From Patescibacteria group bacterium (GTDB lineage Bacteria; Patescibacteriota; Minisyncoccia; Phycocordibacterales; SIBU01): 64,000 nucleotides of DNA. The stretch lies in the NCBI GenBank assembly GCA_040390045.1, contig JAZJZC010000003.1, forward strand, positions 115-64,114, given 5' to 3'. The notes below the pieces were generated by a model. That model made no database searches. It was not told the origin of the DNA and saw only the letters and a list, made by a program, of their open reading frames with translations. Positions 16,319 to 53,832 of this stretch are shown here, piece after piece (the first letter of the stretch is position 1; each line of letters starts with the position of its first letter). The position numbers and the translations under genes are program-made.

Positions 16319-16429
16319 GAAATCCAGGTAGCTGATACTAATATACGAATGAATGCGAATCTACAAATAACTACCAATGCTTGGTTGTGGGATTTTATTC
16401 GCAGTTATTAGTAGTATTAGTATAATTAG

Positions 16430-19437: not shown

Positions 19438-21921
19438 ATGAAAAGTTTTAAAAACACCACGCTCTCAATCCTCATCGTTTCGCTCATCGCGGGACCGACG
19501 CTCTTTTCGTTTCCGACTCAGGCAAAAGCAGGGGTGACAGACTGTATCGCTGGAATGTTGCTCAGCAAAACTAAAAGTACAGGAACCACAGTGGCGGCAA
19601 CCGCGGTAGGTACCGGCGCCATGACCAGCGCAAGCGGCGTAGCAACCGCCAACAAAATTACCTCAGTTCCAACGAGTGACGCTGGGGTAGCGGCCATGAT
19701 TCAAGGCCAAACCACCGCCATCACGTCACTCGTCAAGGCTGATGCAACGATAAATTCTGGAACTAACAGCCAAACCACAGGCTTGAGCATCAAGCGCTGT
19801 ATTATTGAACCGATCGTCACTATCATGGCGAGAACCCTTCTCACCAAATTTACCGCTCAAACAGTTAATTGGATCAATGGTGGTTTCCAAGGCAGTCCAC
19901 AATACGTCACCAACATTCAGGGTTTTATGTCTGATGTTGCCGATCAAGCAATCGGTAGCTACATACGAGGACTTGGCCCCATCGGGGCAATTCTCTGCGG
20001 ACCGTTTGACTTACAAGTGCGACTTTCACTCAATTTACAATATTCTAAAGGACCGAATCTTCGAGAGATCGGTTGTCGACTCTCAGATATCCAAAAAAAT
20101 GTTCAGAACGCTTTCACCAAGGGAGTTTTCGGAAAAAATGGTTGGGATAACTGGCTTCAAATTACTCAGACCCCGCAAAATAATCCTTACGGCGCATATC
20201 TCAAGGGTGTGGAGTCAATCGACGCTAAGATTGCCGGTCAGCAATTTGCCCTGAAAACCCAACTTGATTTTGGCAGAGGTTTTCTTTCTTCGGTTGATCC
20301 AGCAACTGGAAAAATCACAACGCCCGGTTCGATCATCGAGGGTCAGCTAAACGCAACACTCATCCAACCGCTCCAAAATATTGGGTTGGCTAAAGATATC
20401 GACGCTATTTTAAATGCACTAGTTGGACAAATGATCAGTCAGGTTATGGGTGGCATTGGGGGACTGGCCGGCGCAAGCGACTCTCGCTCCGCTTCTGGTG
20501 GATATTCGTCAGCAGTTGATCTTGGTCTAAAACAGACTCCGGCCACTGTTTCTAATGCAAATAATCAGGCTCAAAGTCTTCAAGTTGGTTTGTACATGAA
20601 TACAATTGGTGGAGGAAGAACTGCCGCCACAACAGCCTGTCCAACAAAAACAAGTGATTGTCCTACCGTTACGGGCGGTCCGACACCAACAGAGTTTTGT
20701 ACGCAATTTAAGGCAAACGTCTACGGCACAAAACCAAACGACGCAAGAGTGTGGGTAAAAGTGAACGGTACAGGTGGCGACCAATTGACTTCAAAAACTT
20801 CTGCTACTGGTGACGTACCATGGACTCTTGCTGATTACCGAGCGACGGCCAACTTCTGCCAATTCGTCGATATTACTACGCCGATCGGCGGAGAGGTTGA
20901 TAAATTTGTTGATCAAATAACTCCAAAAGGTGAGGTTACCGCTCCTGTTATCACTCCAGCAAAACCACCGGCAAATAATAATGCCAACCGAGAAATTTCT
21001 CTCTACACCGCGAAACTTAATCAGTCCTTCGTCTATCGTTCCGACGAAGGAATATTGTATGGGCCACAAAACGTCTTCGGCCAAATTGGCGCACTCACAT
21101 ACGGTGGCCCCGCGCCGCATTGGTGGACCGCTTCCTTAAATCAAACTGAGAAGATAGAAACCATTACCGTTAAGTCGATAGTAGACGGACGAACTACTGG
21201 TGCCCACACAATTAGATTCTCCTTACTCCCAGACAGTCAGTCGGGCGTAGCTGTTTCACTAAATCAAGTAAACGCTGGTCAAAACGTCTTCGAGTTTACA
21301 ATTCCATCAAACCCTTCTTTTGGTTCGTACTCTATTAGGATCGGCGGGGTCGAAGTAGCAACTCTTTCTGGAACCAACAATGATTTCACCATCACTTTCA
21401 AAAATCCGATTTCCGCAAATGCCTTGGCAATATCAAGACCAACCTTCCTCTGGCTGTCCCAAGTTACGCTATCGCGCCCACAATCGGCTACTGTTTCTTT
21501 CGATAATGCAATTTCAGATATGGTCCTGCTAAGCAAATCTCAGCCGACAAATATCAGTGTTGGTTTCTCTTCTCGTCTCGACAAAACGATTACTATCAAA
21601 ACCTCGCTTCAAAAATATTTCAACGGGTCATATGTGGGCGAAGCCTTCGCCGGCGGATCAGTCTTTGAAAGTTTCTCTGCTGACATTCAACAGCCGGCGA
21701 GTGGATTGGCAAAGGGTCCTTTTAACGCTTCCGCCATGGAAAGTGGTCAATCTGTAAATATTACTGCGGACAATGGGGCCTTTATAAATTACAGCATAAA
21801 ACCGCCGACGCTCAGTGCTTGTGACGACTCGAGCTTACCGCAATACCGATTGATTACGACTATAAGTGCCGATGAAACCTGGACACAAGTAACGCCGCTT
21901 AATATAAAGTGTAGCGAGTAG
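19438..21921 (+). CDS. Large secreted protein of unknown function (T4SS-like cluster)
   Basis: Signal peptide MKSFKNTTLSILIVSLIAGPTLFSFPTQAKA; 827 aa, Thr/Ser/Gly-rich surface-protein-like. Confidence 0.55.
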   Translation: MKSFKNTTLSILIVSLIAGPTLFSFPTQAKAGVTDCIAGMLLSKTKSTGTTVAATAVGTGAMTSASGVATANKITSVPTSDAGVAAMIQGQTTAITSLVKADATINSGTNSQTTGLSIKRCIIEPIVTIMARTLLTKFTAQTVNWINGGFQGSPQYVTNIQGFMSDVADQAIGSYIRGLGPIGAILCGPFDLQVRLSLNLQYSKGPNLREIGCRLSDIQKNVQNAFTKGVFGKNGWDNWLQITQTPQNNPYGAYLKGVESIDAKIAGQQFALKTQLDFGRGFLSSVDPATGKITTPGSIIEGQLNATLIQPLQNIGLAKDIDAILNALVGQMISQVMGGIGGLAGASDSRSASGGYSSAVDLGLKQTPATVSNANNQAQSLQVGLYMNTIGGGRTAATTACPTKTSDCPTVTGGPTPTEFCTQFKANVYGTKPNDARVWVKVNGTGGDQLTSKTSATGDVPWTLADYRATANFCQFVDITTPIGGEVDKFVDQITPKGEVTAPVITPAKPPANNNANREISLYTAKLNQSFVYRSDEGILYGPQNVFGQIGALTYGGPAPHWWTASLNQTEKIETITVKSIVDGRTTGAHTIRFSLLPDSQSGVAVSLNQVNAGQNVFEFTIPSNPSFGSYSIRIGGVEVATLSGTNNDFTITFKNPISANALAISRPTFLWLSQVTLSRPQSATVSFDNAISDMVLLSKSQPTNISVGFSSRLDKTITIKTSLQKYFNGSYVGEAFAGGSVFESFSADIQQPASGLAKGPFNASAMESGQSVNITADNGAFINYSIKPPTLSACDDSSLPQYRLITTISADETWTQVTPLNIKCSE

Positions 21922-21936
21922 TTTGGTCACAAAAGC

Positions 21937-24900
21937 ATGCGGAAATTTTTACTTTCATTTTTCATAGTCACCCTCACACTCTACGCGTCGTTTTCACCGA
22001 TGGGGAGTTCAAGGGTGTTTGGCCAACTCATCGATATTCCTCTTGATACTGGGGGAGATACAGGTGGCCTAACTTCACCAAATCTTCCAACTCTTCCAGA
22101 TTTTCAACCAGGAGATGGCGTGCGCGCCGACAGCGGAACCAGTCAGGGGGCTGTTGCCGCGGGATCAAACACCGTGGGAGGTGCAAATAATTCTCAATCT
22201 ACACCAGCGGTTATGCAGTTCGCGAGCTGTTTTGTTTTTGCCGCAACAGCTGGATTAGCTGGAGGTTTACACCTAGAAAATTGCGCCGCCAGTGTTATGT
22301 ATATCATCATGTGGATTTTCTCCTGGATACTCTGGTTGTCTGGAAAAATTTTGGACATGTCGGTCTATTACACCATCAACCTTGCTGATCTGTTAAACCA
22401 TGTTCCTGTGGTTGATATTGGGTGGAGAATTTTCCGCGATCTCGCCAACATTTTCTTCATATTTATTCTCTTGTGGGTAGCAATCGGTACGATTCTTGGA
22501 CTGATCTCGGGAAAAACCAAGGAAATTATTGTGCACCTCGTCATCGTGGCGCTTTTAATGAACTTCAGTCTTTTTATAACAAAAACTGTCATTGATGCTT
22601 CAAACATCGTCGCGATTCATTTCTACAACCTCATCGTTACTGGCACTTCCACGGGTACACCTCCAACCACAAGTCTTTCTGGAGCTTTTATGGAAGGCTT
22701 GAAAATTCAAACTCTCTTCCAACCTCAAACTCCTGGAGGGCAGGCGGGAGGAATTGCTGGTTTAGCGGCAGACTATAGTGGTGGAATAATAGACGCCTTT
22801 AAAGTCATCCTCATTGGCGGTTTTGGAATTGCGGTCATGATGATTGCCTCGTACATCTTTTTTGTGGCAGCAATCTTATTTATCGTCCGTCTGATCAATT
22901 TAATGATGGTTATGATTCTCTCACCGTTGGCTTTCCTGGCTTTCGTCCTACCTTCAACGGAAAAATATGCTGACCAGTGGAAAGAGAAATTGATTGGCCA
23001 GTCAATTTTCGCGCCGATTTACCTCGCGATAACCTATGTAGTAATAAAAACTATTCAATCTCCGGCATTTACAAGTGTGGTCTCGGTCAACAATAGAGAC
23101 ACTGGAGCGTCAGTTATGTCAGCTTCTGCTCTTATATTTTATGGCGCATCTGATACCGGTTCCGCTGCCGGCTTCGCCTTTGTCTTTAACTTCATTCTAC
23201 TCATTGGACTCATGCTTGGTTCGATTCTCGTCGCCAAAAAAATGGAAGCGGGTGGAATCGAATTTGCTGTTGAGGCTGGAAAAACAGCGGGAGGGTTTAT
23301 CGGAAGAAGTGTGGCGAGAGGGAAGTATATTACCGCAGTTTCGTCAACCTATTCTGGGGCCGTGGGCGGTATTGGGGGTAGAGTAGCGAATGTTTTAGGT
23401 TTCAAGGACACAGCAAAATCTTTACGAGAACATGCGGCAAAAGTATCCGCTAAGGGCGATTTTGCTCAAAAGAAAATGGATATGAACGAGTGGGATAGAA
23501 AATTTGGAAGGAGCGCTTTTGGTACAACCGAACTGGGAAGTTTTATTAGGGAGAAAACAACTGGCGGCGCCTTATTCGGAACTAAAGCCAAATTTGGTGG
23601 CGAAAAATCAGTAGGCGAGTCCTATGAGGAGAGCGAACATTTGCGTGATGAAGCACAAGATGTGGAACGTGCAAACGACGTCAAGAGAGCCGCTCTTGTG
23701 CTACAAAGTGAAATAAAAAACCCGAAGGCAACAAAAACAAAGGGTGAGCTGTTAGCAAAAGATGCGTCTGGTAAATTTCTTTTCAGGCCAGCCGTTCTTC
23801 CAGACAAACCTGACGGAAAGGGGGGCCTGAGAGAAATGACAGAAGATGAGTGGGTAGCAGATCTGCAAAAAAAGGAAAGGGATGAGAATAAAAAAATACT
23901 GCTCGATGCGGTTCAATCAGCCGTAACACGGCTTCCCTCCACAGGTCTTGTCCATCTCCAAGAAGAAGTCATAAAAACTGTTCTACCTTATTCGACAGAA
24001 AGACAGGTTGACGAACTAATAAAATCTACTGATGGCGGTTGGACAAAAGAAGACAAGGATGAATTTCTTGAAATCTATTTTAATCAACTGAAAGAAGATG
24101 GTGAAAAAGCTTCTGATGAACTCGAAGCGTTTGATCAAAAATTAGCTGCCTACGAGCAAGAAGTTCGAGAAGGTAAATTTGCAATTGATTCTGCCACAGG
24201 AAAAGTAATTACAGACAACAAGGGAAGGGTTATCGCCAAAGGAACCACTCTAGATGCAGACGGAAATGCTTCTGGGGATACTTTTGAAATTCCGGAATAT
24301 AAACAAACCGATGCGTTCCGCGCTGTGTATGCAAAAACTCGTCGATACATGTCAGATAAGGGATTTGAACTCCTAAATATCGTCAACTTTAGCTCTCATC
24401 TTTCGCAAAGTACCAAGGACCGACTCAAAAGAGAGGGAAAAAACGAAAAGGAGGGAAATCTTCTCCGTGCTGTACCTGCTATTGGTAAAATTATGAAATG
24501 GGGCACCGTCCAGAATATACGCGACCCCAACAAAACTTCGGGATTTACAGACCAATTCCGTGTTGATATTCGGTCTATAAAAGATGCTGATTGGGTTAAA
24601 TTACTCACTGTATTACGTGAACAAAAAGATCCTATCACCGGAGAATTTATGTACCGCAATACGGATGACGAGCGCGCCGAAGCGTTGCGAACAGGCAATT
24701 TTGAACTTACCGTTAAAGATAATTTGTGGGAAGCTCGAGCCCGAGACTTTTTGGCCGGGAGAGCGGCTGTTGAATCGGCAAACACCCCTGGAGGATTGCG
24801 TAAATTGTACGAAAATATTCGTCTTATGGGAGCCGAGGTTCTTAGAGAAACAGCTAAAAAGGATCCTGTGGATGTAAAAATCCTTTTGGAGGGAGCCTTT

Positions 24901-25185
24901 CAAGCTCTAAAAGAGAATGAGGAAGGAGAGAGAATGATGACGGTTGAGACTCAACAGCTCATCAGGAAACTAATTCAAACTAAGGAAGGATGGGATATTG
25001 GACAGAAAATGGAAAATGCTGAATTCCAGCGAATGAGAGAGAGGTTGGAAAAGGCTTTCCGAGCGGATAGTAAAAATGTGGTTGAATTCACTGATTGGAC
25101 AGATCCTGCACAACGTGCAGCGGCTATTGCTGAAGGATTAGAGGGTAGATTTAATAGGATGGGATTACCAAAAGCTACACCATAA
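21937..25185 (+). CDS. VirB6/TrbL-like polytopic membrane protein with ~600-aa cytoplasmic/coiled-coil C-terminal extension
   Basis: ~8 hydrophobic helices in the first ~480 aa (e.g. IFFIFILLWVAIGTILGLI, GIAVMMIASYIFFVAAILFIVRLINLMMVMILSPLAFLAF), then a charged region rich in K/E/D. Confidence 0.5.
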   Translation: MRKFLLSFFIVTLTLYASFSPMGSSRVFGQLIDIPLDTGGDTGGLTSPNLPTLPDFQPGDGVRADSGTSQGAVAAGSNTVGGANNSQSTPAVMQFASCFVFAATAGLAGGLHLENCAASVMYIIMWIFSWILWLSGKILDMSVYYTINLADLLNHVPVVDIGWRIFRDLANIFFIFILLWVAIGTILGLISGKTKEIIVHLVIVALLMNFSLFITKTVIDASNIVAIHFYNLIVTGTSTGTPPTTSLSGAFMEGLKIQTLFQPQTPGGQAGGIAGLAADYSGGIIDAFKVILIGGFGIAVMMIASYIFFVAAILFIVRLINLMMVMILSPLAFLAFVLPSTEKYADQWKEKLIGQSIFAPIYLAITYVVIKTIQSPAFTSVVSVNNRDTGASVMSASALIFYGASDTGSAAGFAFVFNFILLIGLMLGSILVAKKMEAGGIEFAVEAGKTAGGFIGRSVARGKYITAVSSTYSGAVGGIGGRVANVLGFKDTAKSLREHAAKVSAKGDFAQKKMDMNEWDRKFGRSAFGTTELGSFIREKTTGGALFGTKAKFGGEKSVGESYEESEHLRDEAQDVERANDVKRAALVLQSEIKNPKATKTKGELLAKDASGKFLFRPAVLPDKPDGKGGLREMTEDEWVADLQKKERDENKKILLDAVQSAVTRLPSTGLVHLQEEVIKTVLPYSTERQVDELIKSTDGGWTKEDKDEFLEIYFNQLKEDGEKASDELEAFDQKLAAYEQEVREGKFAIDSATGKVITDNKGRVIAKGTTLDADGNASGDTFEIPEYKQTDAFRAVYAKTRRYMSDKGFELLNIVNFSSHLSQSTKDRLKREGKNEKEGNLLRAVPAIGKIMKWGTVQNIRDPNKTSGFTDQFRVDIRSIKDADWVKLLTVLREQKDPITGEFMYRNTDDERAEALRTGNFELTVKDNLWEARARDFLAGRAAVESANTPGGLRKLYENIRLMGAEVLRETAKKDPVDVKILLEGAFQALKENEEGERMMTVETQQLIRKLIQTKEGWDIGQKMENAEFQRMRERLEKAFRADSKNVVEFTDWTDPAQRAAAIAEGLEGRFNRMGLPKATP

Positions 25186-25237
25186 CCTAGTGAGTAGTTA
25201 AATTTCTAAGAGCAGAGACAAAGAAAATTACAACACC

Positions 25238-26812
25238 ATGAGTTACATAGACCAAGAACAAAAATTAGAAAAAATCTTGAGTAAATTACCTCAAGCAACT
25301 CAAGAACTGTTTAAAGATTATTCTATACTTTTTATTATTGGTGATACCGGGGACGGTTTTAATTTAACCATGGGAGAAATTGGTGAGGTATGTGAACTGG
25401 TTCGCCAAGTGATCACAAAAGAAAGACCGGTGGAAAAATTTGAGGAAGGGTTGAAAGAAAAATTGGCGGATGATGAGGATAACCTAGCAAAAGCGGGGGA
25501 AATTGTAGCAACTATCAACGAGAAAATTTTTGTGAAGCTCTTGCCGGCGTTGGGATTGAAAGCCTTGCCGATTCTCATGACTCCTGCTGTTGCTAAAAAT
25601 TTACCTGACGTAAACGTTTCATTTGAAGAAGGAAAGAGTAAAGAAGATGAAGAGTCTGCGGTCGCACAACCTTTAGGATCTTCACAACAATCGATCGATT
25701 CTCAACTACCGACTCCGCCTCGTACGGTCATGTTAAATAAAATGCCTCAGACTCAAGCGCCAACTGCTCCAAAACCAAACCGCTTCCCAAACCTAAAATC
25801 AGTAGCACCCGTACTTAACCTCAAACCTTTCTCAGGAGCTCCTTCTCCCGGACTTTCGAAATTTTCGAGTGCTCCAAGTGGATCAGTCGGGGCTTCTGCG
25901 AACACTTCGGCCGCACCGATAAAACCTCGCACGCCACTTATGGAAACACCGACCGAAATGATGTCGGAAAATCAAACCGAATCATTCTTGAAAATGCTCG
26001 CCGGTAAATTGGATGAAAAAGATTTGCAATCAAGATTTGATAAACTGCCATTCGCACTTAAAACCGCGCTCCGCTCGATGGACTCGGCTAAAAAAGTGCT
26101 CGACATTGGCATAAAATACGGCCTTCATGTCGACAAACTCGGAGTGGTAGCCGAAGAAACCGGCTTGGTAATTCTTGGTATGACGCACCCCAATCAATTT
26201 CTTCCTCGACTCAACCGCCGTCTCGGCATTGGCGAAGAAAAAACTCGACCTATCGCTCAAGAAATCAACACTGAAATTTTCCTGAAAATTCGCGAGGCGT
26301 TAAAGCAAGTGAACGGGGAAGAGCCTTCGTATGCAAACCTCGCACAATCTGCCGTAGCGACAAAATCAATTGCACCAGCGACCGAACCAGAACCTCATCC
26401 GTACAACCCGATTGACTTAGCCCAAACAAGTGAAGCTCAGACTGAAAATATCGCTGTTCAACAAGAGGGCGGCGAAATCCTTGATCGTGAAAAAATCCTT
26501 AGAGAAATCGAAAATCCTTCGACAGTAAAAATGACGCCTGTCTCAGTGCCAGTACCAAAAGTTGAGAGCAGACCAGTAGAAATTAAACCTCAAATACCCG
26601 CGCCAATTGTTCCACCTCCAGCACCGCCCGCGCAACCACCGCGCCAGGAATTTCAATTTGAACCTCCAGCACCAAAACCTCAAGAAACCCCTAAGCCTAT
26701 CGTGACCTCTCCAACATCAAACATCGTTGACCAGAAACTTTCTGATGTCACCGCGGCAAAGAAAACAGGAAGTTCTTATTCTGCAGATCCGTACAGAGAA
26801 CCCTTGCAGTAG
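25238..26812 (+). CDS. Hypothetical cytoplasmic protein with internally duplicated ~90-aa domain and Pro-rich linkers
   Basis: Two similar segments (…IGDTGDGFNLTMGEIGEV… / …DIGIKYGLHVDKLGVVAEE…) and a PxxP-rich tail. Confidence 0.5.
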   Translation: MSYIDQEQKLEKILSKLPQATQELFKDYSILFIIGDTGDGFNLTMGEIGEVCELVRQVITKERPVEKFEEGLKEKLADDEDNLAKAGEIVATINEKIFVKLLPALGLKALPILMTPAVAKNLPDVNVSFEEGKSKEDEESAVAQPLGSSQQSIDSQLPTPPRTVMLNKMPQTQAPTAPKPNRFPNLKSVAPVLNLKPFSGAPSPGLSKFSSAPSGSVGASANTSAAPIKPRTPLMETPTEMMSENQTESFLKMLAGKLDEKDLQSRFDKLPFALKTALRSMDSAKKVLDIGIKYGLHVDKLGVVAEETGLVILGMTHPNQFLPRLNRRLGIGEEKTRPIAQEINTEIFLKIREALKQVNGEEPSYANLAQSAVATKSIAPATEPEPHPYNPIDLAQTSEAQTENIAVQQEGGEILDREKILREIENPSTVKMTPVSVPVPKVESRPVEIKPQIPAPIVPPPAPPAQPPRQEFQFEPPAPKPQETPKPIVTSPTSNIVDQKLSDVTAAKKTGSSYSADPYREPLQ

Positions 26813-27213
26813 GGGATAGGGGGTAGGGTTTAGGGTATAATTAAACCAATGACATTAAGTTCATTCAAAGAATTAATTGTTTGGCAAAAAGGTATTGAGC
26901 TTGTTAAAGAGATCTACAAGTTAACGGAAAGCTTTCCGAAAACTGAAACATACGGGCTGACTAGTCAGATGAGAAGGTCCGCGGTTTCAATCCCTTCCAA
27001 CATTGCTGAAGGTTATAAACGAAAAAACGTGAAGGAGTACATACAATTTTTGAGCATAGCTGATGGTTCAGCGGCCGAGCTTGAAACACAGCTAATAATT
27101 TCAAAGTCAATTTACAAAACTAATTTTTCAATAGCTGAAAATTTGTTAGAAGAAATACAGAAAATGCTCATAACGATGATTCGCAAACTAAACCCTAAAC
27201 CCTAAACCCTTCT
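26813..27213. mobile_element. ~400-bp TIR-bounded mini-element carrying a four-helix-bundle (rRNA-IVS-type) protein gene
   Basis: 5' TIR GGGATAGGGGGTAGGGTTTAGGGTATAATTAAACC; 3' TIR ACTAAACCCTAAACCCTAAACCCT (reverse-complementary GGGTTTAGGG repeats); the 3' TIR encodes the protein C-terminus LNPKP*. Confidence 0.6.
26849..27205 (+). CDS. Four-helix-bundle protein (23S rRNA intervening-sequence protein family)
   Basis: LTSQMRRSAVSIPSNIAEGYKRKNVKEYIQFLSIADGSAAELETQL matches the family signature. Confidence 0.8.
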   Translation: MTLSSFKELIVWQKGIELVKEIYKLTESFPKTETYGLTSQMRRSAVSIPSNIAEGYKRKNVKEYIQFLSIADGSAAELETQLIISKSIYKTNFSIAENLLEEIQKMLITMIRKLNPKP

Positions 27214-27215
27214 TT

Positions 27216-27641
27216 ATGAGATTCCAAGTTCCACAATTCATTGAAGTTGAAGATAAAATTTTTGGTCCCTTGACCATCAAACAATTTATCTACCTGGCTG
27301 GAGGTGGGGGATTGTGTTTTATTTTCTATTCATACTTCAAACTCTATATCGCCATACCACTCATGATACCGGTGATAGCCTTTTCTGTAGCCTTAGCGAT
27401 GTACAAAGTCAACAATCGCTCTTTTATACTCATCCTTGAGTCAGCTTTCAAATATATGGTCACCAACAAACTATACATCTGGAAAAAAACCGACAGAAAA
27501 CCGACACACAAAACTGAAACTGCACCCGACACACTTTTGTATGTACCCAAACTTTCCGACAGTAAACTGAAAGACTTAACGTGGAGTCTTGATATTAACG
27601 AAAATACCTCGCTCGGTGCCAAAGAGAGTATGGAGCGTTAG
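27216..27641 (+). CDS. Small 2-TM membrane protein, PrgI/VirB3-like candidate
   Basis: 141 aa, two adjacent hydrophobic helices (LCFIFYSYFKLYIAIPLMIPVIAFSVALAMY) directly upstream of the virB4 genes, as in Gram-positive T4SS. Confidence 0.4.
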   Translation: MRFQVPQFIEVEDKIFGPLTIKQFIYLAGGGGLCFIFYSYFKLYIAIPLMIPVIAFSVALAMYKVNNRSFILILESAFKYMVTNKLYIWKKTDRKPTHKTETAPDTLLYVPKLSDSKLKDLTWSLDINENTSLGAKESMER

Positions 27642-27643
27642 TC

Positions 27644-28157
27644 GATACGAAAATACGAAATGGAAACGAATATACGAAAAAATACGAAAACAACCTCACC
27701 AAGTGTATTGTATCCGGAATTATCGTATGATTTGGTTGGTATTTTTTTTGATGTACACAAAGAACTCGGTTTGTACGGGAGAGAAAAACAATATGCTGAT
27801 GCAATCGAGCTAAAACTCAAGCTTCGAAACATTCCTTATGAAAGGGAACTGGCGATTTCTGATAGTGGCAACATACTTGATTTTCTAGTTGATAGAAAAA
27901 TAATATTGGAATTAAAATCTAAGCGGATGTTAACTCCAGATGATTTTCGCCAAACCCAACACTACTTGCAAGAAACACAAATGCGCTTGGGTTTATTAGT
28001 CAACTTCAGAGAAAAAAATATTAAGCCTGTCCGTATTGTTCGCATAGATACCGTAAAAAAGTTACAATATAAGAACGAGAAGGAAAGTCAGTAAGATTGC
28101 GCAAAAAGTTTTTGTATAATTTCGTATATTGGCATTAATAATTCGTATTTTCGTATG
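27644..28157. mobile_element. ~515-bp TIR-bounded mini-element carrying a GxxExxY (PD-(D/E)xK-like) gene, inserted between the prgI-like and virB4 genes
   Basis: 5' TIR GATACGAAAATACGAAA (27644-27660) / 3' TIR AATTCGTATTTTCGTAT (28141-28156); internal TACGAAA direct repeats; the 3' TIR overlaps the ATG of the downstream gene. Confidence 0.6.
27660..28094 (+). CDS. GxxExxY family protein (PD-(D/E)xK nuclease-like)
   Basis: VGIFFDVHKELGLYGREKQYADAIELKLKLRNIPYERE…DFLVDRKIILELKS…LGLLVNF matches the family pattern; the N-terminus is encoded by the repeat. Confidence 0.65.
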   Translation: METNIRKNTKTTSPSVLYPELSYDLVGIFFDVHKELGLYGREKQYADAIELKLKLRNIPYERELAISDSGNILDFLVDRKIILELKSKRMLTPDDFRQTQHYLQETQMRLGLLVNFREKNIKPVRIVRIDTVKKLQYKNEKESQ

Positions 28158-28805
28158 GCATCTTCCTCAACCAAAGCAACCCAAGATTTTGTTCCTATAA
28201 AAGAAGTGCGTGATGGCATCGTCGTTCTAAAAGACGGCTCTTTCAGAGCAATTCTTATGACGTCCTCCTTAAACTTTGCCTTGAAGTCAGAAGACAATCA
28301 AAATGCCATTATTTTGCAGTTCCAAAACTTTTTAAACTCGCTTGATTTTTCAATTCAACTTTTTATTGAATCGAGGAAACTCGACATCAGACCATACATC
28401 GCCCTTTTGGAAGATCGCTATAAAAATCAAACTGCTGACTTGATGAAAATTCAAACCCGCGAATATATTGAGTTCATTAAAACCTTTACAGAAAACACGA
28501 GCATCATGACCAAAACCTTTTTTGTGGTTGTCCCATTTGCCGCCGCACCCTTGCAAATGAAAAAAGGAGTAATGGATTTTGCCGGAAAACTGCTCACTCG
28601 CAAGCAAGCTGAAGAAAAAATTCAACAAAAACAGGACAACTTTGAAGAAAGCCGAAGCCAGCTGCTTCAAAGAATTTCAGTGGTGGAGCAGGGACTGATG
28701 CGTTGCGGTATCAGAGCAGTAGAACTGGGAACTGAGGAGGTGGTTGAGTTGTATTACAAAATTTTTAATCCGGGAGATACCGACAAACCAATCCAAATCA
28801 ATTAA
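28155..28805 (+). CDS. VirB4/TrbE N-terminal (CagE_TrbE_VirB-like) domain protein, a separate ORF from the ATPase
   Basis: PIKEVRDGIVVLKDGSFRAILMTSSLNFALKSEDNQNAIILQFQNFLNSLDFSIQLFIESRK resembles N-termini of Gram-positive VirB4 (PrgJ/TcpF-type); recalled similarity, no search run. Confidence 0.55.
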   Translation: MASSSTKATQDFVPIKEVRDGIVVLKDGSFRAILMTSSLNFALKSEDNQNAIILQFQNFLNSLDFSIQLFIESRKLDIRPYIALLEDRYKNQTADLMKIQTREYIEFIKTFTENTSIMTKTFFVVVPFAAAPLQMKKGVMDFAGKLLTRKQAEEKIQQKQDNFEESRSQLLQRISVVEQGLMRCGIRAVELGTEEVVELYYKIFNPGDTDKPIQIN

Positions 28806-28813
28806 TAAATACC

Positions 28814-30631
28814 ATGGGACTATTTGATATTTTTAAGAAAAAAGAAAAACTTCCCGACATTGCGTCAATTTTGCCACAAGAAATTTATGCTGCCGGTGTG
28901 TTGGAATTGAAAGATATCATCGCACCGTCGGCGCTCAAGGTCAGCCCACGGACGCTGAACCTGGGAGAAAAAATTGTCAGAACTTTTTTTGTGATTTCCT
29001 ACCCACGATTTCTATCAGCTGGTTGGTTTTCACCGATTATCAACCTCGACAAAGTGTTTGATATTTCAATCTTCATTCATCCGATTGACACAGCGGTAGT
29101 CTTGCGACAATTCCAGAAAAAGGTAGCCGAGGTGCAAAGCCAAATTGCTACGAGAGAGAAAAAAGGGCTTGTCCGCGACCCAATGCTTGATACGGCATAT
29201 CACGATCTCGAAAGTCTCCGTGATAACTTGATGCAAGCTCAAGAAAAATTGTTTGATGTCGGTCTCTATATTTCCATTTACGCCGACAGCGATGCTGAAC
29301 TCGACAAAATCGAATCGGAAATAAAATCCCTACTCGAATCAAAATTAATTTATTTAAAACCGGCGCTCTTCCAACAGGAACAGGCATTTCGAAGTGTTAT
29401 TCCTATGGCTCAAGATGAACTCATGATCCATTCAAAGCTAAATTCGTCTCCGCTTTCTTCGTTGTTTCCGTTTACGTCTTTCGATCTTACGTCAGACAAA
29501 GGAATTCTCTATGGCATTAACCGCCACAACTCATCACTGGTCCTTTTTGATCGTTTCAGTTTGGAAAACTATAACTCAATTACGTTCGCCAAATCTGGTT
29601 CCGGAAAAAGTTACAACACTAAATTGGAAATTTTGAGAACCTTGATGTTTGATACTGAGGTCATTGTCATCGACCCTGAACGCGAATATGAATACATGGC
29701 GGAAGCCACGGGAGGGAAGTACTTTACGATTTCGCTCAACTCAAATCATCACATCAACCCGTTTGATCTACCGATCCCGCGAGAAGATGAATCGGCCACG
29801 GATGTCCTTCGCTCAAACATCATCAACCTAGTTGGTCTTTTCAGAATTATGCTCGGCGGTCTTTCTGCCGAAGAAGACGCTTTGATTGACCGCGCCATTA
29901 GCGAAACCTATGCTCTTAAAGACATCACGCCTGACTCGGATTTTAAAAATATCGAGCCGCCTCTGCTTTCAGATTTTGAACTGGTGCTTGCCGGTATGGA
30001 AGGCGCGGAGTCTTTGGTGCAACGTTTGAGTAAATATACTCGTGGCACTTGGGCTGGTTTTATCAATAGACCTTCAAACATCGACATCGATAGTAAATTT
30101 ATTGTCTTCTCTCTTCGCGATATGGAAGACGAATTGAAACCAGTCGCCATGTATATCGTCATGCACTATATCTGGAATGCAATCCGCAAAAATTTACGCA
30201 AACGTTTGCTTGTCATCGACGAGGCGTGGTGGATGATGAAATCAGAAGACACGGCATCATTTCTCCTTGGGCTCGCCAAGCGAGGACGAAAATATTTCCT
30301 CGGCCTTTCCACCATCACACAAGACGTGGACGACTTTTTGAAATCCCCTTACGGCTTGCCGATTATTACCAACTCGTCGATCCAAATGCTTCTCAAGCAG
30401 TCGCCGTCCTCAATCGATAAAATTCAAAAAGTGTTCAGCTTAACTGATGAAGAAAAATATTTATTACTCGAATCCGATGTTGGAGAGGGAATTTTCTTTG
30501 TTGGACTAAAACACGTGGCTATAAAAGTGATTGCTTCATACACCGAAGATCAGATTATCACTTCGGATCCATCACAATTACTCGCCATCAAAAAGGCGAA
30601 GAAGGAGCTTGAGGCAGGACAGACCACGTAA
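28814..30631 (+). CDS. VirB4-like type IV secretion ATPase (C-terminal ATPase part)
   Basis: Walker A AKSGSGKS, Walker B LLVIDEAWWMM, 605 aa. Confidence 0.85.
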   Translation: MGLFDIFKKKEKLPDIASILPQEIYAAGVLELKDIIAPSALKVSPRTLNLGEKIVRTFFVISYPRFLSAGWFSPIINLDKVFDISIFIHPIDTAVVLRQFQKKVAEVQSQIATREKKGLVRDPMLDTAYHDLESLRDNLMQAQEKLFDVGLYISIYADSDAELDKIESEIKSLLESKLIYLKPALFQQEQAFRSVIPMAQDELMIHSKLNSSPLSSLFPFTSFDLTSDKGILYGINRHNSSLVLFDRFSLENYNSITFAKSGSGKSYNTKLEILRTLMFDTEVIVIDPEREYEYMAEATGGKYFTISLNSNHHINPFDLPIPREDESATDVLRSNIINLVGLFRIMLGGLSAEEDALIDRAISETYALKDITPDSDFKNIEPPLLSDFELVLAGMEGAESLVQRLSKYTRGTWAGFINRPSNIDIDSKFIVFSLRDMEDELKPVAMYIVMHYIWNAIRKNLRKRLLVIDEAWWMMKSEDTASFLLGLAKRGRKYFLGLSTITQDVDDFLKSPYGLPIITNSSIQMLLKQSPSSIDKIQKVFSLTDEEKYLLLESDVGEGIFFVGLKHVAIKVIASYTEDQIITSDPSQLLAIKKAKKELEAGQTT

Positions 30632-30710
30632 CACATAGCATGGAACATGTAACAGAATAGCTTTGTATCCATGATTCATGTTGCGTGCTCCATGTTTCAT
30701 TTTTTAATCT
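30632..30710. repeat. Intergenic repeat sharing GAACATG / GCTCCATG / TGTTGCGTG submotifs with the rpmH-dnaA spacer
   Basis: catagcatggaacatgtaacagaa…catgttgcgtgctccatgtttc versus 37101-37200 catagaacatgtatcacagaacatggaaca…atgctccatg…tgttgcgtg. Confidence 0.5.
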
Positions 30711-33783: not shown

Positions 33784-35049
33784 ATGTCCAAAAAAACCGC
33801 CATTGCCATAATCGTTTTTCTTGTCCTGCTCATCGCTGGTGGCTTTTTGGCTTTTTATTTTTACTTTAATCGTGGTACGGGCAACGACATCATCCCCGCA
33901 ACAAACACACCGGTTACAAGTATTTTTCCTTCGAGTAACGTCGGGGGCTCAAACAGTGGAAACAACGGGGGTAACAATACTTCAGCAAGTACTACAATTA
34001 GCGGAAACCAGAATCAATCTAACTCTCTGCCGATGCCGGTTCTTAAACAACTATCTATTCGTCCAAGTGCTGGGGCTGTTGTTATCGCCACCACCTCTCC
34101 GGTTGTACTAGTAAATTTTATTGAAAAGGGGACGGGAAATGTCTACCAGGTCAGCCCAGAAAACAATCTTGAAATTCGACTTTCCAATACCACCATACCA
34201 AAAATCCAAGAGGCGCTCTGGAACAAAACAGGTTCACAGGTGATCACTCGGTACACTACTTCAGATGAAGTTGATTCGATCAAATCCTACAGCGGCTTTC
34301 TGTTGCCGAAATCGGCCGACAATCCCGATGGCGCGCTTACAGGATATTTTCTTTCAGAAAATATTAGAGCCATGGTTAAAAATCCAGACCAAAACAAAAT
34401 CTTCTATTTACTACCGACGTCATCTGGTAGCACCGGCATCATCGCCGATTTCGATGGCAGCAAAAAAACCCAAATTTTTGACTCCCTTCTAAAGGAATGG
34501 CTCGTTGACTGGACATCACCAAATATCATTTCCCTCAACACCAAGCCATCTGCTGGAGTTCCAGGCTACTTATTTCTTCTGAATACCAAAACCGGCGGCC
34601 TCTCACGGGCGATCACTGGTATTAAAGGACTGACCTCCAAAGTCAGCCCGACTGGGAACATCATCTTGTACTCAGAAAGCGCTGATGGAGCGCTCTCATT
34701 AAAAATCTACAATCTTAAAACGGGTACAACATTAGAAACTCCCGTTGCGACCTTGGCAGAAAAGTGTGTTTGGTCAAGCAATAATTCCGACATCTTCTAC
34801 TGTGCAGTACCAACGTATGTTCCACCCGGCAACTTTCCGGATGACTGGTACAAAGGCCTGGTACTCTTTTCAGATGAGATCTGGAGAATAGACAGCACCA
34901 CAGGAACTGGAGAACTGATAGCTGATCCCACAAACCTTACTAAAGAACAAATTGACGGCGTAAACCTATCTCTAAGTCCAAAAGAGGATTACCTGCTATT
35001 TACTAATAAAAAAGATTTTCATTTGTGGAGTTTGCGGTTACAACAATAA
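33784..35049 (+). CDS. Membrane-anchored extracytoplasmic protein (possible beta-propeller)
   Basis: Signal anchor IAIIVFLVLLIAGGFLAFYFYF; 421 aa. Confidence 0.5.
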   Translation: MSKKTAIAIIVFLVLLIAGGFLAFYFYFNRGTGNDIIPATNTPVTSIFPSSNVGGSNSGNNGGNNTSASTTISGNQNQSNSLPMPVLKQLSIRPSAGAVVIATTSPVVLVNFIEKGTGNVYQVSPENNLEIRLSNTTIPKIQEALWNKTGSQVITRYTTSDEVDSIKSYSGFLLPKSADNPDGALTGYFLSENIRAMVKNPDQNKIFYLLPTSSGSTGIIADFDGSKKTQIFDSLLKEWLVDWTSPNIISLNTKPSAGVPGYLFLLNTKTGGLSRAITGIKGLTSKVSPTGNIILYSESADGALSLKIYNLKTGTTLETPVATLAEKCVWSSNNSDIFYCAVPTYVPPGNFPDDWYKGLVLFSDEIWRIDSTTGTGELIADPTNLTKEQIDGVNLSLSPKEDYLLFTNKKDFHLWSLRLQQ

Positions 35050-35050: not shown

Positions 35051-35190
35051 TCGATACGAAAATACCTTTTACCCTCCGATACGAAATACGGACAAACGAA
35101 AATACGAAATTATACGAAAACCGTAGCGGTGGTAGAAAGTTTTCGTATTTTTTCGTATGTTCGTACTCACCATTCGTATTTTCGTATCGA
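35051..35190. mobile_element. 140-bp cargo-less MITE of the GATACGAAAATAC TIR family, exactly filling the stop-to-stop gap between convergent genes
   Basis: TCGATACGAAAATACC (35051-35066) … TTCGTATTTTCGTATCGA (35174-35191); internal TACGAAA / TTTCGTA repeats. Confidence 0.65.
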
Positions 35191-35652
35191 CTAGGCGACA
35201 TATTTAATCACAACGCGCCGTTGCGCCCCTTCGCCACGAGACTCAGTTTTAATATCTTTTTGACCATCGAGAAATGAGTGAACCTGCATTCGTTCGTAAG
35301 AAGACATCGGGTCAAGTTCGACATCAACCTTAAACGATCGTGCTCGATCAGACATAATTTTTACTTTAGCTTTCAGGTGTTCGAGCGCTTTATCTTGATA
35401 GCCATTAACATCAACTACAAACTTTACAGGAGTTCCCGTCGGGGAAGTTTTTTTTGAAATAACCCTACGAATAATGTAATTAAGCGCACCGAGATGCTCT
35501 CCTTGTGGCCCAATTAAAACCGAAGAATCTTTTGTGTGTATTAAAAAACGAACGTGCTTTGATTGTGAGTTTTCGATACGCTCAATTTTCTCAAAACCCA
35601 CATTCATAAAGGTTAAAAACTCTTTTAAGACTGCTTCTATATCCATTTCCAT
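35191..35652 (-). CDS. jag: Jag/KhpB (KH + R3H domain RNA-binding protein)
   Basis: KH-like LIGPQGEHLGALNYIIR and C-terminal R3H segment; located with yidC. Confidence 0.8.
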   Translation of the reverse strand: MEMDIEAVLKEFLTFMNVGFEKIERIENSQSKHVRFLIHTKDSSVLIGPQGEHLGALNYIIRRVISKKTSPTGTPVKFVVDVNGYQDKALEHLKAKVKIMSDRARSFKVDVELDPMSSYERMQVHSFLDGQKDIKTESRGEGAQRRVVIKYVA

Positions 35653-36883: not shown

Positions 36884-36889
36884 AGTTAA

Positions 36890-36966
36890 ATACAAAATAC
36901 TAATGGATACGAATATACAAATTCTCTCATTTGTACCTTTGTACTGATTTGTATTTCGTATTTCCT
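36890..36966. repeat. Degenerate copy of the GATACGAA-TIR element between rpmH and rnpA
   Basis: GGATACGAATATACAAA … TTTGTATTTCGTATTTCC (imperfect inverted repeat). Confidence 0.4.
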
Positions 36967-37100: not shown

Positions 37101-37302
37101 ATGGGTTCATAGAACATGTATCACAGAACATGGAACACCTGAAGAAAACACACTCTGTTTTTCTTATGCTCCATGCTGTATGTTACGTGTTGCGTGTTAT
37201 TAACATCTTATGCACACATTATAAACATATCCGGGCCCTTTCCACAAGCTACCCAAAAATTAATTAGGTATATAATGAACCCACTAAAAACTTTTAAAAA
37301 TA
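37101..37302. promoter_or_regulatory. Candidate oriC / dnaA promoter region (rpmH-dnaA spacer)
   Basis: Conserved origin gene order; DnaA-box-like TTATGCACA and TTTCCACAA; AT-rich stretch before dnaA; contains the GAACATG repeat shared with 30632-30710. Confidence 0.5.
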
Positions 37303-44585: not shown

Positions 44586-44588
44586 AAA

Positions 44589-44633
44589 GGTCAAAAGAAA
44601 AACTCCCCTGGGCGGGGAGTTTTTCTTTTGACC
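44589..44633. terminator. Perfect 20-bp-arm palindromic bidirectional terminator after tyrS
   Basis: GGTCAAAAGAAAAACTCCCC tgggc GGGGAGTTTTTCTTTTGACC. Confidence 0.7.
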
Positions 44634-44735
44634 TTAGATTAGGTCTGCTTCCTCAGTATCAATGTCCGGAGAAGCTTCTTCTACATCATCCATTAAATTT
44701 GGATCAAGTGGCTTGTTGTCGTCTTCGCTTTCCAT
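44634..44735 (-). CDS. Possible 33-aa highly acidic peptide (MESEDDNKPLDPNLMDDVEEASPDIDTEEADLI)
   Basis: Hand-translated ORF; its stop codon abuts the terminator palindrome; below the ORF-track cutoff. Confidence 0.2.
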   Translation of the reverse strand: MESEDDNKPLDPNLMDDVEEASPDIDTEEADLI

Positions 44736-44785
44736 AGTTTAAAATTAACTACTAATTTCTATCGATTGTTTTCTCTCGAGCAAAT

Positions 44786-44986
44786 TTATTTTCGATGAAA
44801 CAATCGCTCGTGCCATAGTTTTATCAGATATAAATTTTTTTGCAAATCTACGCAAGCTGTGGATAAATGGCGCTCGGGCAGTTTTGGGAAAATGCGTGCT
44901 TCGGCAACACGGAAATCATAGTCGTTTCGTAACGAAAAACTCATAAGTCGCTTCGCTTCTGCGGCCAACTTCGTTTTTCTACTCAA
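44786..44986 (-). CDS. Hypothetical small basic protein
   Basis: 66-aa ORF only; contains a perfect DnaA-box 9-mer TGTGGATAA at 44851-44859 (probably chance). Confidence 0.3.
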   Translation of the reverse strand: MSRKTKLAAEAKRLMSFSLRNDYDFRVAEARIFPKLPERHLSTACVDLQKNLYLIKLWHERLFHRK

Positions 44987-45051
44987 CTCCTTGATTTCCG
45001 TGTCGCCTTTCGCAATGCATTTCCAAAACTGCCCTCGCTAAGATACCGATG

Positions 45052-50088: not shown

Positions 50089-50129
50089 GCCACAAGTATA
50101 GCATTTATATGTTTTTGTCACAAGTATAT

Positions 50130-50882
50130 GACAATATTGATATGTGGATAAGCCATATTTAACAAGCTGTTACAGCTAAATAGCCGTATTTGCCATAGTT
50201 AATTGACAGAACAAATTAAAACTGTTACTATTTTGCGCAGAGAGTTTAGGTCATTGAGGAGATAGCTAAAAGATTGTTCCCCGCCTCTAGTTCGAAAGAA
50301 AGGTACTACGGCCTTCCGCCACAGCGGACTAAGCGTAGAAAGAAGAGAGGAAGGGGAGAGAAACAGCCTTTTGAATATCTTGTTTCGAATGATGAGTGTT
50401 CTACATATAGTCAGGCTTCGAAACCCTACTAGATGAAGGAGCTATGTCTTTAAGACAAACTTATCGCACGGAGTTCGGCGAGTAATCGCCAGGACATCGA
50501 TGGCGCAAAAAGTCTAACCCGCTTTATGCGTCAAAATGTCCTTACGCCAAGAAGCCGCACAAAAAGAGAGTTGTGCGGAAGTGAAAGGAAAGAGTAAGGA
50601 AGATGTTTGAAAAATAAATAGCGAATCAGGAAAACGCGAAACAAGAAATGTGTTTTGCAATGTTGTTCCTCTTCGCCCCACTCATTAAAAGTTTTTACTT
50701 GAGGTTGGTGGGGTAAGAGGGAATGCAAATGCAATTCCTTTTGTGGCGTTCACGTTCGACAAGCAAGCGGGGACAGTCTAGACCCCCGCTAGCTTGTCGA
50801 AAAATTCTTAGAGACATATCTGAAATGCCGAAAAAAGGCAGGATGTGGAAAGTGGAGATAGTATCAACATTTTCATTTTGAG
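50130..50882. other. ~750-bp noncoding region at the left edge of the high-GC island; multiple hairpins, no supportable ORF
   Basis: GC rises from ~40% to ~50% across it; hairpins at 50553-50578 and 50757-50799; isolated perfect DnaA-box 9-mer TGTGGATAA at 50142-50150. Confidence 0.4.
50757..50799. promoter_or_regulatory. Strong GC-rich hairpin (8+6 bp stem, 11-nt loop containing GTCTAGAC) without a flanking U-tract
   Basis: CGACAAGCaaGCGGGGacagtctagacCCCCGCtaGCTTGTCG. Confidence 0.4.
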
Positions 50883-51239: not shown

Positions 51240-51402
51240 TTGCGGACAAAAATCCCAGAGCAATCTGGTTGCGACAAAATCCGGTCGTGTAAATCGAGGT
51301 AAAAAGTTTGTCCCCGTTTTCTTGGAAAAATGGAGAGTCGTGAAGGAGCAGAACTTCCGTCAGGATGACTGTCGACAATAGTCATGAGGGTTAAATTTAT
51401 CT

Positions 51403-51428
51403 GGAGAAGTTTTGGTTAAAACTTCTCC
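51403..51428. repeat. Perfect hairpin GGAGAAGTTTT-ggtt-AAAACTTCTCC (island hairpin family copy 1), preceded by a second hairpin at 51365-51385
   Basis: Exact 11-bp inverted arms; loop context TTTTGGTTAAAA is shared with copy 2. Confidence 0.6.
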
Positions 51429-51522
51429 TACTTATCAAGTTCATAAAATTATTTTGTGAACTTTTAGGTATCAGAGATGTTCTTTCCAGAAATGGTGGCG
51501 CAAATATTTCGCGCTTCTGTTT

Positions 51523-51969
51523 ATGGAAAGAACACTTGTATTGATAAAACCTTTGGGGCTCCAGAATTCACTTCTGGAAATCCTCCGGGCTTTGAAGTCG
51601 ATTGGCACTATTGTTGAAAGGCAATTGGTTCCGGTTTCAAGTGAGCGGATAGCCGCCCATTACGCCGAACACTCCACAAAGGCGTGGTTCGGCAAGATCG
51701 TGGGTTACTACCACGGTCAGACAGTGATGGCGCTGGTCCTCGAGGGGCCCGACGTCACCGCACGCTTGCGTGGAATTGTCGGACCATCCGACCCGCGGAA
51801 GGCAGCACCCGGACAAATTCGGGCGCTCGTCCTGGCCAAGTTCCAGGATAAAAAAGACGGGTGGCGAGCGATAGAGCTCGTCACTTCTGGCGTGGACAAT
51901 TTTATCCACGCCTCGGACTCTCCGGAGGCCGCCGAGCGAGAAATCGCTCTGTGGTTTCCAAAAAAATAA
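51523..51969 (+). CDS. ndk: Nucleoside diphosphate kinase homolog (divergent)
   Basis: LVLIKPLG…HYAEH…VMALVLEG…NFIHASDSPEAAEREIALWF aligns with the NDK catalytic His loop NxxHGSD and the conserved Lys, Tyr and Glu. Confidence 0.75.
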   Translation: MERTLVLIKPLGLQNSLLEILRALKSIGTIVERQLVPVSSERIAAHYAEHSTKAWFGKIVGYYHGQTVMALVLEGPDVTARLRGIVGPSDPRKAAPGQIRALVLAKFQDKKDGWRAIELVTSGVDNFIHASDSPEAAEREIALWFPKK

Positions 51970-52099
51970 TTTGGGTTTTCAAAGGAGAAGCAAAGGGTTT
52001 TGCTTCTCCTCTTTATTTGGCTCGCGGTAACCGTATGTACGGAAGTATCGTTGGTCAATCAAGAAACCATTCAGCGCAGTGTTGCGCTAGAAAGGAAGT

Positions 52100-52567
52100 A
52101 TGGATATAAAAAAACTTTTCGCCTTGGCAGATAGGGCGAAAACAATTGAGGCAGGGCAAAATTATGCCCTGCCCAATGCGGTGTTTTGCGTTCTCCTCGA
52201 TGTCCTATTCAAGGGCAAAGAGGGAGCGCAGAGTCTCAGGGTGGAACTTGAGACTGAAGATTCAGACGGGTTGTATGTCAACGAGGCGTATTACGACCTG
52301 TTCGTTCTCCGTCATTCCGACGGAGAAGGCTTGTGCATCCCCGCGCCGCTTCTCCATGTGGAGACGGCGATGACCCTAACGAAGAGGGCGCTCGTCACTG
52401 TCAGAGGACAGCACGACCGGCAACATGAGCCGGCCGAATCGGAAGAGTTCTTTAGGCTGTGGGAACAATTCCACGAAGAAGTCTCGCCGGCGAGACTTCT
52501 CGACTCTGTCCGTGAACATCTCAGCAAGTCTGCCCGCTTGGCAGCGGGTTTCCTTGAGACTGAATAA
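52100..52567 (+). CDS. Hypothetical protein (high-GC island)
   Basis: 155-aa ORF, island codon usage, followed by an intrinsic terminator. Confidence 0.45.
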   Translation: MDIKKLFALADRAKTIEAGQNYALPNAVFCVLLDVLFKGKEGAQSLRVELETEDSDGLYVNEAYYDLFVLRHSDGEGLCIPAPLLHVETAMTLTKRALVTVRGQHDRQHEPAESEEFFRLWEQFHEEVSPARLLDSVREHLSKSARLAAGFLETE

Positions 52568-52637
52568 AATAAGTTGAAGGTTACAAGGGAAGAGTGACTT
52601 CCTAATCCTCCGGGATAAATTGTCGCAAGGGTTTATC

Positions 52638-52668
52638 GAGCACCAATATCTTTTGGTGCTCGGGTTTT
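52638..52668 (+). terminator. Intrinsic terminator after the 52100-52567 ORF
   Basis: GAGCACCAA tatctt TTGGTGCTC followed by GGGTTTTTG. Confidence 0.6.
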
Positions 52669-52669
52669 T

Positions 52670-52697
52670 GGAGAAACTTTTGGTTAAAAGTTTCTCC
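52670..52697. repeat. Perfect hairpin GGAGAAACTTTT-ggtt-AAAAGTTTCTCC (island hairpin family copy 2)
   Basis: Exact 12-bp inverted arms; the stem differs from copy 1 by compensatory substitutions; same ggtt loop. Confidence 0.6.
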
Positions 52698-52788
52698 TCT
52701 CGATCGGGCTTGCAATTAATTTTGTAAATCCGTAGAGAGCAATCTCGAACCGCGCTCCGCAGGCGTAACCATCTGTGGAAAATGCCTT

Positions 52789-53607: not shown

Positions 53608-53832
53608 AAATTTTGCGCGTTTTAATTACAAAACGCGTTGCACCCGCAAAGTGGGAAAGGGTTAACACGTGAACGTTGCGGCGTTCATTAAAAAAACAAT
53701 TTTCCAGCACTGCCTTGGTCGGTGGTGTTGGACTTTATCGGGCTCGCGAATTTATTTCGTGCGTCCGTAGAGGTGGCCATTTTTTAAAAAATATCTAATC
53801 AGGTTCAGAATATAAAATTTAAATTTTGAATT

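Follow-up and report, generated by a model that had tools for sequence, protein, structure and literature searches.

The locus

What is the 140-bp sequence that fills, from stop codon to stop codon, the gap between two convergent genes at 35051-35190 of the DNA analysed here (a stretch of 64 kb, referred to below as the window), and what put it there? An earlier note had described it as a cargo-less MITE with inverted termini and internal TACGAAA/TTTCGTA repeats occupying the entire spacer, and the sequence and coordinates are as that note gave them. The locus is made up as follows:

33784-35049, + strand: conserved 421-aa hypothetical protein (left flank), stop codon TAA 1 nt before the element
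35051-35121: left arm, five TACGAAA-type units on the + strand
35122-35138: asymmetric centre, CGTAGCGGTGGTAGAAA
35139-35190: right arm, four units on the - strand
35191-35652, - strand: jag/khpB, with KH and R3H domains (right flank), stop codon TAG abutting the element with 0 spare bases

Both flanking genes are real and syntenic in relatives, where the left-hand orthologues (411-415 aa) are also convergent with jag; the nearest Jag relatives of the window are Taylorbacteria- and Magasanikbacteria-like. Beyond jag/khpB the gene order runs yidC, rnpA and rpmH, followed by a divergent dnaA. A type IV secretion-like cluster at 19438-30631 (prgI-like, traC-like and traG/VirB4-like genes and large neighbouring genes) adjoins the dnaA-rpmH-rnpA-yidC-jag block, and this is syntenic in five CPR relatives (L045, L048, L051, L056 and L058).

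The element itself is an ORF-less imperfect palindrome that reads TCGATACGAAAATACC...GGTATTTTCGTATCGA. Its termini, TCGATACGAAAATAC (35051-35065) and GTATTTTCGTATCGA (35176-35190), are complementary at 15 of 15 positions, and an inner arm pair of 26 nt is complementary at 88%. Allowing at most one mismatch, ATACGAAA occurs five times on the + strand of the left half and four times on the - strand of the right half; compared with other members of its family, one arm carries a 24-nt insertion. The sole ORF across the region is a mechanical one of 60 aa. The repeat exceeds chance: within the window the 13-mer GATACGAAAATAC with up to two mismatches has 9 matches against 2.25 expected, a number that none of 100 shuffles reached, and the TACGAAA 7-mer has 27 (12.1 expected), with three clusters accounting for 14. 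Inverted k-mer arrays with at least three supporting k-mers are found in the window only at 27598-28363 and 35054-35187, and were seen in none of 20 Markov simulations. A short-read Logan contig from the same organism (SRR26324623_18291, L001) stops within the 140-bp palindrome.

Members of the family

A covariance model, R1, was built from 12 ORF-less copies and run unfiltered over the window, with these matches:

35078-35188: 96.8 bits, E = 3e-17
16334-16441: E = 3e-8
27644-27753: E = 1e-5 (left part of the gene-carrying copy described below)
36889-36962: E = 2e-4
28047-28157: E = 3e-3 (right part of the gene-carrying copy)

The 64-kb window thus holds four family loci (27642-28157, 35051-35190, 36889-36962 and 16334-16441), and in five related Parcubacteria-like genomes R1 finds 1-4 copies per 10-12 kb; about 80 kb of relatives has 14 loci. 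These loci bear out the proposal that the spacer, small, ORF-less and with inverted repeats, belongs to a dispersed family. Two of the members in the window are of a TACNAAT variant:

36889-36962: degenerate member, between the rpmH stop (36966) and the rnpA start
16334-16441: fourth member, in the gap after gene 14342-16318

The first of these, noticed earlier as a weaker copy between rpmH and rnpA, is real; it has the units TACAAAA/TACTAAT/TACGAAT/TACAAAT, with their complements on the opposite arm, and folds at -22.8 kcal/mol (z = -6.1). The second was absent from the earlier list. The gap of L034 that is orthologous to 16334-16441 contains a TACGAAA-type copy that can be aligned with it unit by unit, yet each of the two is closer to the copies of its own genome than to its orthologue, which points to turnover or concerted evolution.

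A pattern scan with one genome per species recovered nine true copies in a single MAG, CAYHDB01, whose proteins are 75-81% identical to those of the window and syntenic with them, though it is titled Saccharibacteria and the window is Parcubacteria-like. The 42 pattern matches outside this MAG were rejected as mostly chance matches in coding DNA. One pattern match, L043 6300-6361, is the GxxExxY coding motif EKVYEN, spelled GAAAAAGTATACGAAAAT and thereby containing the repeat unit ATACGAAAAT; this is probably a coincidence.

Gain and loss at orthologous gaps

The reading set against a mobile repeat was that of a conserved terminator, kept at this exact position and having no further copies. 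What was found is the opposite on both counts: more copies turned up in the 64-kb window, in the genome collection and in the five relatives, and a given orthologous gap may be occupied in one genome and vacant in another. Between traC and traG, L056 and L058 have a copy where the window has just 8 nt; between two genes of about 338 aa, L048 and L051 have one where the window has an empty 44 nt; between the 5xx-aa gene and prgI, the window has a different cassette where L056 and L058 have a TACGAAA palindrome; and after the orthologue of gene 2442-3341 there is a palindrome in L016 where the window has a classical GC-rich terminator. The jag gap is filled in every relative examined, with contents that differ per genome: a palindrome of TACCAAT/TACTAAT units in L045, one of CTAGGCN units in L051 and, in the Taylorbacteria genome L048, a four-helix-bundle gene between inverted ACTGAAT arrays. 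L051 has, in its rpmH-rnpA gap, a palindrome of the same family as that in the jag gap of L045.

Because copies are present or absent at orthologous gaps, the element is not a site-specific conserved terminator; it is very probably a palindromic repeat that is dispersed and prone to gain and loss, and to read it as a mobile repeat is broadly right. No target-site duplication could be made out, the flanks having no repeat beyond the ATACG/CGTAT of every copy and the filled and empty orthologous sites being too diverged, and no excision footprint was identified at the sites examined.

The gene-carrying copy and its nuclease

A further copy, lying between the stop codon of a prgI-like gene and the start codon of a traC-like gene, surrounds an ORF:

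27642-28157, + strand: gene-carrying copy
27642-27691: left array, four or five + units, overlapping the start of the ORF
27660-28094, + strand: GxxExxY/PDDEXK_3 nuclease ORF, catalytic D..ExK intact
28107-28157: right array, - units, ending in the ATG of the next gene

This copy, too, is real, and homology links its arms to those of the 140-bp element (81-89% identity); the similarity includes a 21/22 stretch that spans the upstream stop codon, the junction TAG+TCGATACGAAAATACGAA at the end of jag being identical at 21 of 22 positions to 27638-27659.

The ORF (about 130 aa) matches Pfam PDDEXK_3 (E = 4.5e-21) and TIGR04256 (E = 5e-20), its sole Pfam/NCBIfam matches, and the D/E/K catalytic residues are invariant among its homologues. 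Its predicted structure (pLDDT 90.9) has a PD-(D/E)XK fold; the best match in a fold search was Cas4 SSO0001, alongside lambda-type exonucleases, splicing endonucleases and Hjc, all at a generic level of resemblance (TM about 0.5). No relative in the PDB was found by sequence, and PADLOC gave only weak Cas4b/Cas1-fusion similarity. In L056 (4986-5500) the GxxExxY ORF is flanked by a near-identical direct repeat of 16/17 nt (left ATACGAACAAATACGAAAA, right ACACGAACAAATACGAAAA). Past the stop codon, the second copy of this repeat begins a complete inner hairpin, a possible trace of the joining of ORF and palindrome.

The earlier note had taken the two copies for an autonomous/non-autonomous pair. 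The homology of the arms upholds part of that view; the other part fails, as the cargo is a nuclease rather than a recognised transposase and occupies one and the same site, prgI|traC, in three genomes (the window, L056 and L058). That it keeps this site despite protein identities of just 76-77% makes "autonomous element" the wrong picture for this lineage. Single-copy within the 64-kb window, the gene behaves as a vertically kept, single-site, RAYT-like gene and not as an autonomous transposon.

Association of the arrays with the nuclease subfamily

Since the cross-phylum protein alignment is too diverse for a locus search, metagenomes were scanned for the CPR subfamily only. This yielded 80 loci, of which 62 were non-redundant and had enough flank for units of the form T[AG]CNAA[AT] to be counted:

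Upstream 160 nt, 62 loci: + units 4.0, - units 0.35
Downstream 200 nt, 62 loci: + units 0.42, - units 4.58

At least two units on each side in the inverted arrangement were present at 51 of the 62 loci, and the reverse arrangement at none. The homologues, at 56-81% identity and from many CPR groups, begin with M-x-TNIRxNTK (for example METNIRKNTK or MDTNIRTNTK), which is the translated array; start codons called inside arrays thus give false TNIR-type N-termini in annotation. The genes downstream of the cassette vary among the metagenomic loci (traC-like, ABC ATPase, mutM-like and others). Over longer times, then, the cassette has reached many sites, always with its arrays, and standing beside so many different genes it is not strictly immobile. 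Viral contigs, scanned both by pattern and by protein, gave nothing convincing for carriage by phages.

These loci bear directly on a rather unlikely alternative, namely that the element is a classical MITE moved by a canonical transposase from another part of the genome (such as an IS630/Tc1-like enzyme that targets TA), with the GxxExxY gene a mere passenger. A random passenger would not be expected to have arrays tied to it at 51 of 62 loci or overlapping its start codon, and neither the window nor about 100 kb of related loci showed any transposase. The element does resemble a MITE in its perfect 15-nt terminal inverted repeats, small size, lack of an ORF, copy number and insertion polymorphism, and in its intergenic position and its presence or absence between relatives it is like Correia/NEMIS, RUP and ERIC; it differs from them in having no demonstrable target-site duplication and no cognate IS with a known transposase and in its internally repetitive arms, and the relative that has the same ends encodes GxxExxY/PDDEXK_3 in place of a transposase. 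All ends are ATACG...CGTAT, which is compatible with a TA duplication, though the TA is inseparable from the repeat itself. Transposon ends typically have subterminal arrays of short motifs, which counts for a MITE, and inverted arrays of short motifs at both ends resemble multi-site transposon ends. An integron attC site was considered and rejected: the ends have no GTTRRRY core, the arrays lie on both sides of the ORF, and no integrase turned up in the window or related loci.

Recognition sites or hairpin

Among 12 ORF-less copies every TACGAA core is invariant, while the spacers and the centre vary. RNAalifold found compensatory changes in none of the 23 predicted pairs of these copies; in the cassette arms, the central base does not co-vary between arms: units of matching rank share it in 32% of cases and permuted ones in 35%, and many relatives fold with a mismatch there. 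Invariant cores combined with the lack of compensatory change make protein-binding sites a likelier reading than a selected hairpin, which was dropped as the main explanation on the strength of the compensatory and central-base results. To judge from this pattern of conservation, the units look like protein recognition sites rather than a selected stem. One arm also occurs on its own (L009 7142-7185).

The palindrome nevertheless folds strongly, at -48.3 kcal/mol as RNA (z = -5.6, with z = -4.3 for the other strand) and at z = -4.8 as DNA. It is strictly intergenic and abuts stop codons, and one might suppose that it is an RNA-level element whose hairpin ends or protects both convergent transcripts or is an RNase III site, the copies resembling each other through shared function and gene conversion. 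The palindrome of L016 that takes the place of a classical GC-rich terminator fits this supposition, as does the fact that rRNA intervening sequences (IVS) with the same ORF family as one cassette of the window (see below) are cut by RNase III (PMC4990558), such insertions being present in CPR rRNA genes (PMC11270868). As the main account, however, it is unlikely. A pattern scan of 35051-35190 found no intrinsic terminator (GC stem plus T-run), though the genome uses classical ones elsewhere (3345-3395 and 12905-12925 in the window); the cores are invariant with no compensatory changes; the pairing of many relatives would be poor, given that the central base does not co-vary in the cassette arms; some arms stand alone and some arrays are in direct orientation; and orthologous gaps can be fully empty. 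The asymmetric centre has no orientation bias relative to transcription (3 forward and 2 reverse among co-directional gene pairs). Rfam at the gathering threshold and ARAGORN gave no tRNA and no Rfam match over the whole window, and Rfam at an E-value threshold gave nothing relevant over 44.4-57.5 kb. An RNA-level role of the element may coexist with recognition of the units by a protein.

From start to start, the units are 8, 9 or 10 nt apart with equal frequency and hardly ever 7, a finding on which the element was rejected as a heptameric simple-sequence repeat (STRR). Slippage during replication has been proposed for over-represented intergenic heptamers (PMC4692102, PMC4679880), and here it would have multiplied 7-nt units in place into something locally palindromic, with nothing moving; that each gap in the relatives can hold a different unit would suit it. 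It is largely contradicted, and highly improbable, given that the units are separated by variable 1-3-nt spacers rather than being head-to-tail, that whole arms of about 50 nt and the asymmetric centre can be aligned across sites and genomes, and that one unit has stayed with a protein subfamily across identities of 56-81%.

A proposed system of repeat and resident nuclease

The closest working analogy is that of the REPINs and their RAYT gene. In E. coli and Pseudomonas, REPINs are extragenic inverted doublets that flank a single-copy, vertically inherited enzyme gene, and repeat and enzyme co-diversify (PMC3116915). The elements described here are likewise dispersed extragenic imperfect palindromes with two inverted conserved halves and a less conserved spacer, the same repeats flank an enzyme gene, and repeat sequence and enzyme lineage go together. 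They differ in that the enzyme is a PD-(D/E)XK protein of about 130 aa (GxxExxY) and not an HUH/Y1 IS200-like transposase, a difference on which membership in REPIN/RAYT fails; in that an arm consists of some five 7-nt units in an array and not of one REP palindrome; in that the array overlaps the start codon of the gene; and in that compensatory changes, common in REPINs, are absent here.

By this analogy, the 140-bp spacer and the GxxExxY nuclease would form a REPIN/RAYT-like system of a repeat and its resident nuclease, an interpretation for which the balance stands about even, and the same evenly weighted judgement applies to the nuclease being the cognate acting protein of the palindromes. 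The model of a MITE and its autonomous partner would give way to it. The spacer would be a non-autonomous copy, each of its arms having about five 7-nt units (T[AG]C-N-AA[AT], here TACGAAA) spaced at 8-10 nt, and the units would be putative binding sites that the nuclease binds or cuts. A single, vertically kept nuclease may act in trans on the dispersed ORF-less palindromes and mobilise copies, so that palindromes would come and go in the short gaps that follow stop codons. Each copy would incidentally give the flanking transcripts a strong 3'-terminal hairpin, and in the case of 35051-35190 both convergent transcripts would have it.

Searches of the literature, mostly outside subscription journals, found no paper that links GxxExxY or PDDEXK_3 to flanking repeats, and the function of PDDEXK_3 is given as "Unknown" (PMC3424549). 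The association suggests a repeat-plus-enzyme partnership of TACGAAA-type arrays and a small nuclease, one found described nowhere in that mostly non-subscription literature.

The same architecture with other units and proteins

The window contains a second cassette of the same type, with a different protein:

26812-27210, + strand: four-helix-bundle cassette (23S_rRNA_IVP/bAvd-like, DGR Avd-like), ORF 26849-27205

The ORF is bracketed by inverted TTAGGGT/GTAGGGT arrays (26812-26840 and 27186-27210), and the cassette is absent from the orthologous site in L056 and L058, where there is a TACGAAA palindrome instead. Cyanobacterial plasmids have further examples. A four-helix-bundle gene has inverted GGCAGAA arrays in Stanieria and, in Calothrix (44% identity to that of the window), inverted TAGGGTG arrays, the unit type of the window. 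In Picosynechococcus (L143) such a gene, with inverted GGAGATA arrays, lies between cas10 and cmr3, and in Pseudanabaena (L142) the arrays are in direct orientation, AAAGCTA upstream and AAAGCCA downstream. The Pseudanabaena gene is located between cas6 and cas4, so that the L142 and L143 insertions are both within CRISPR-Cas operons. Among GxxExxY genes, that of Bacteroides finegoldii has inverted CAGAGGA arrays, that of Gemmatirosa adjoins a palindrome of CGCGGAT arrays, and those of Treponema and Sedimentisphaerales have plain inverted repeats. That an unrelated four-helix-bundle protein, not a nuclease, occupies the same type of cassette means that the ORFs could be passengers in hairpins moved in some other way.

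Four intergenic palindromes of other units also occur in the window (2266-2405, 11214-11327, 30632-30710 and 37101-37215), two of them made of AAATYCGAA and two of CATGGAAC/CATGTAAC, one of the latter in the rpmH-dnaA gap; no ORF associated with any of the four was seen within the window.

Two classes of known repeat come close to these cassettes. The 23S rRNA IVS of Leptospira and Coxiella, which have S23p/four-helix-bundle ORFs, are regarded as selfish and horizontally spread as well as RNase III-cut (PMC4990558), and the insertions in CPR rRNA genes occur with and without 23S_rRNA_IVP ORFs (PMC11270868). Like the elements of the window, IVS are sporadic and have complementary ends that form a long stem around a small ORF or none, and cassette 26812-27210 encodes the same protein family; unlike them, the 140-bp element lies between protein-coding genes and not in helix 25 or 45 of 23S rRNA (there is no rRNA in the window), and the cargo of its related copy is a nuclease, not S23p.

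The heptameric intergenic repeats, namely the cyanobacterial STRR, GGGAATC of Xanthomonas (with 70-75 convergent inverted pairs) and TAACTGA of Beggiatoaceae, are over-represented in the intergenic DNA of several phyla, slippage being the proposed cause and their function unknown (PMC4692102, PMC4679880). They share with the present elements 7-nt units in intergenic DNA, and such arrays bracket the four-helix-bundle genes of cyanobacterial plasmids; they are mostly perfect head-to-tail tandems, whereas the units here are 8-10 nt apart and tied to a nuclease gene. The two papers describe the repeats without an associated gene and make no mention of S23p/four-helix-bundle genes.

A wider and more tentative reading, possible though doubtful at present, is that GxxExxY (PDDEXK_3) nucleases and four-helix-bundle "23S rRNA IVS" proteins are the cognate proteins of short-unit array palindromes across many phyla, together making up one class of REPIN/RAYT-like selfish or domesticated cassettes whose ORF-less derivatives would explain heptamer-type repeats, CPR intergenic palindromes and rRNA IVS.

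Significance

Both protein families, PDDEXK_3/GxxExxY and the 23S-IVS four-helix bundle, are large, span phyla and have no assigned function (PDDEXK_3 being the one listed as "Unknown", PMC3424549), and heptamer-type intergenic repeats and rRNA IVS have gone for decades without an origin or a mechanism (PMC4692102, PMC4990558). The oriented association of gene and arrays provides a testable hypothesis, that a small protein recognises units both around its own gene and scattered genome-wide. The joint class, if true, would account for heptamer-type repeats known since 1990 (STRR and the Xanthomonas GGGAATC pairs), for the dense palindromes of CPR genomes and for rRNA IVS. In the reduced genomes of CPR bacteria the elements fill a large share of scarce intergenic DNA; assemblies can break at these palindromes, which are also relevant to how CPR transcripts end.

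Other features of the gaps

A small DUF559 (Vsr-like) endonuclease ORF lies in the gap downstream of the traG-like gene in the relative (L056 8119-8603 / L057 3428-3775), a further case of a small nuclease gene in a spacer between genes. The window also has long, strongly structured non-coding gaps at 44586-45051, 50122-50807 and 51264-57368, with fold z of -4 to -10, and a perfect 22-bp terminator-like stem is present within one of them, at 44587-44635.
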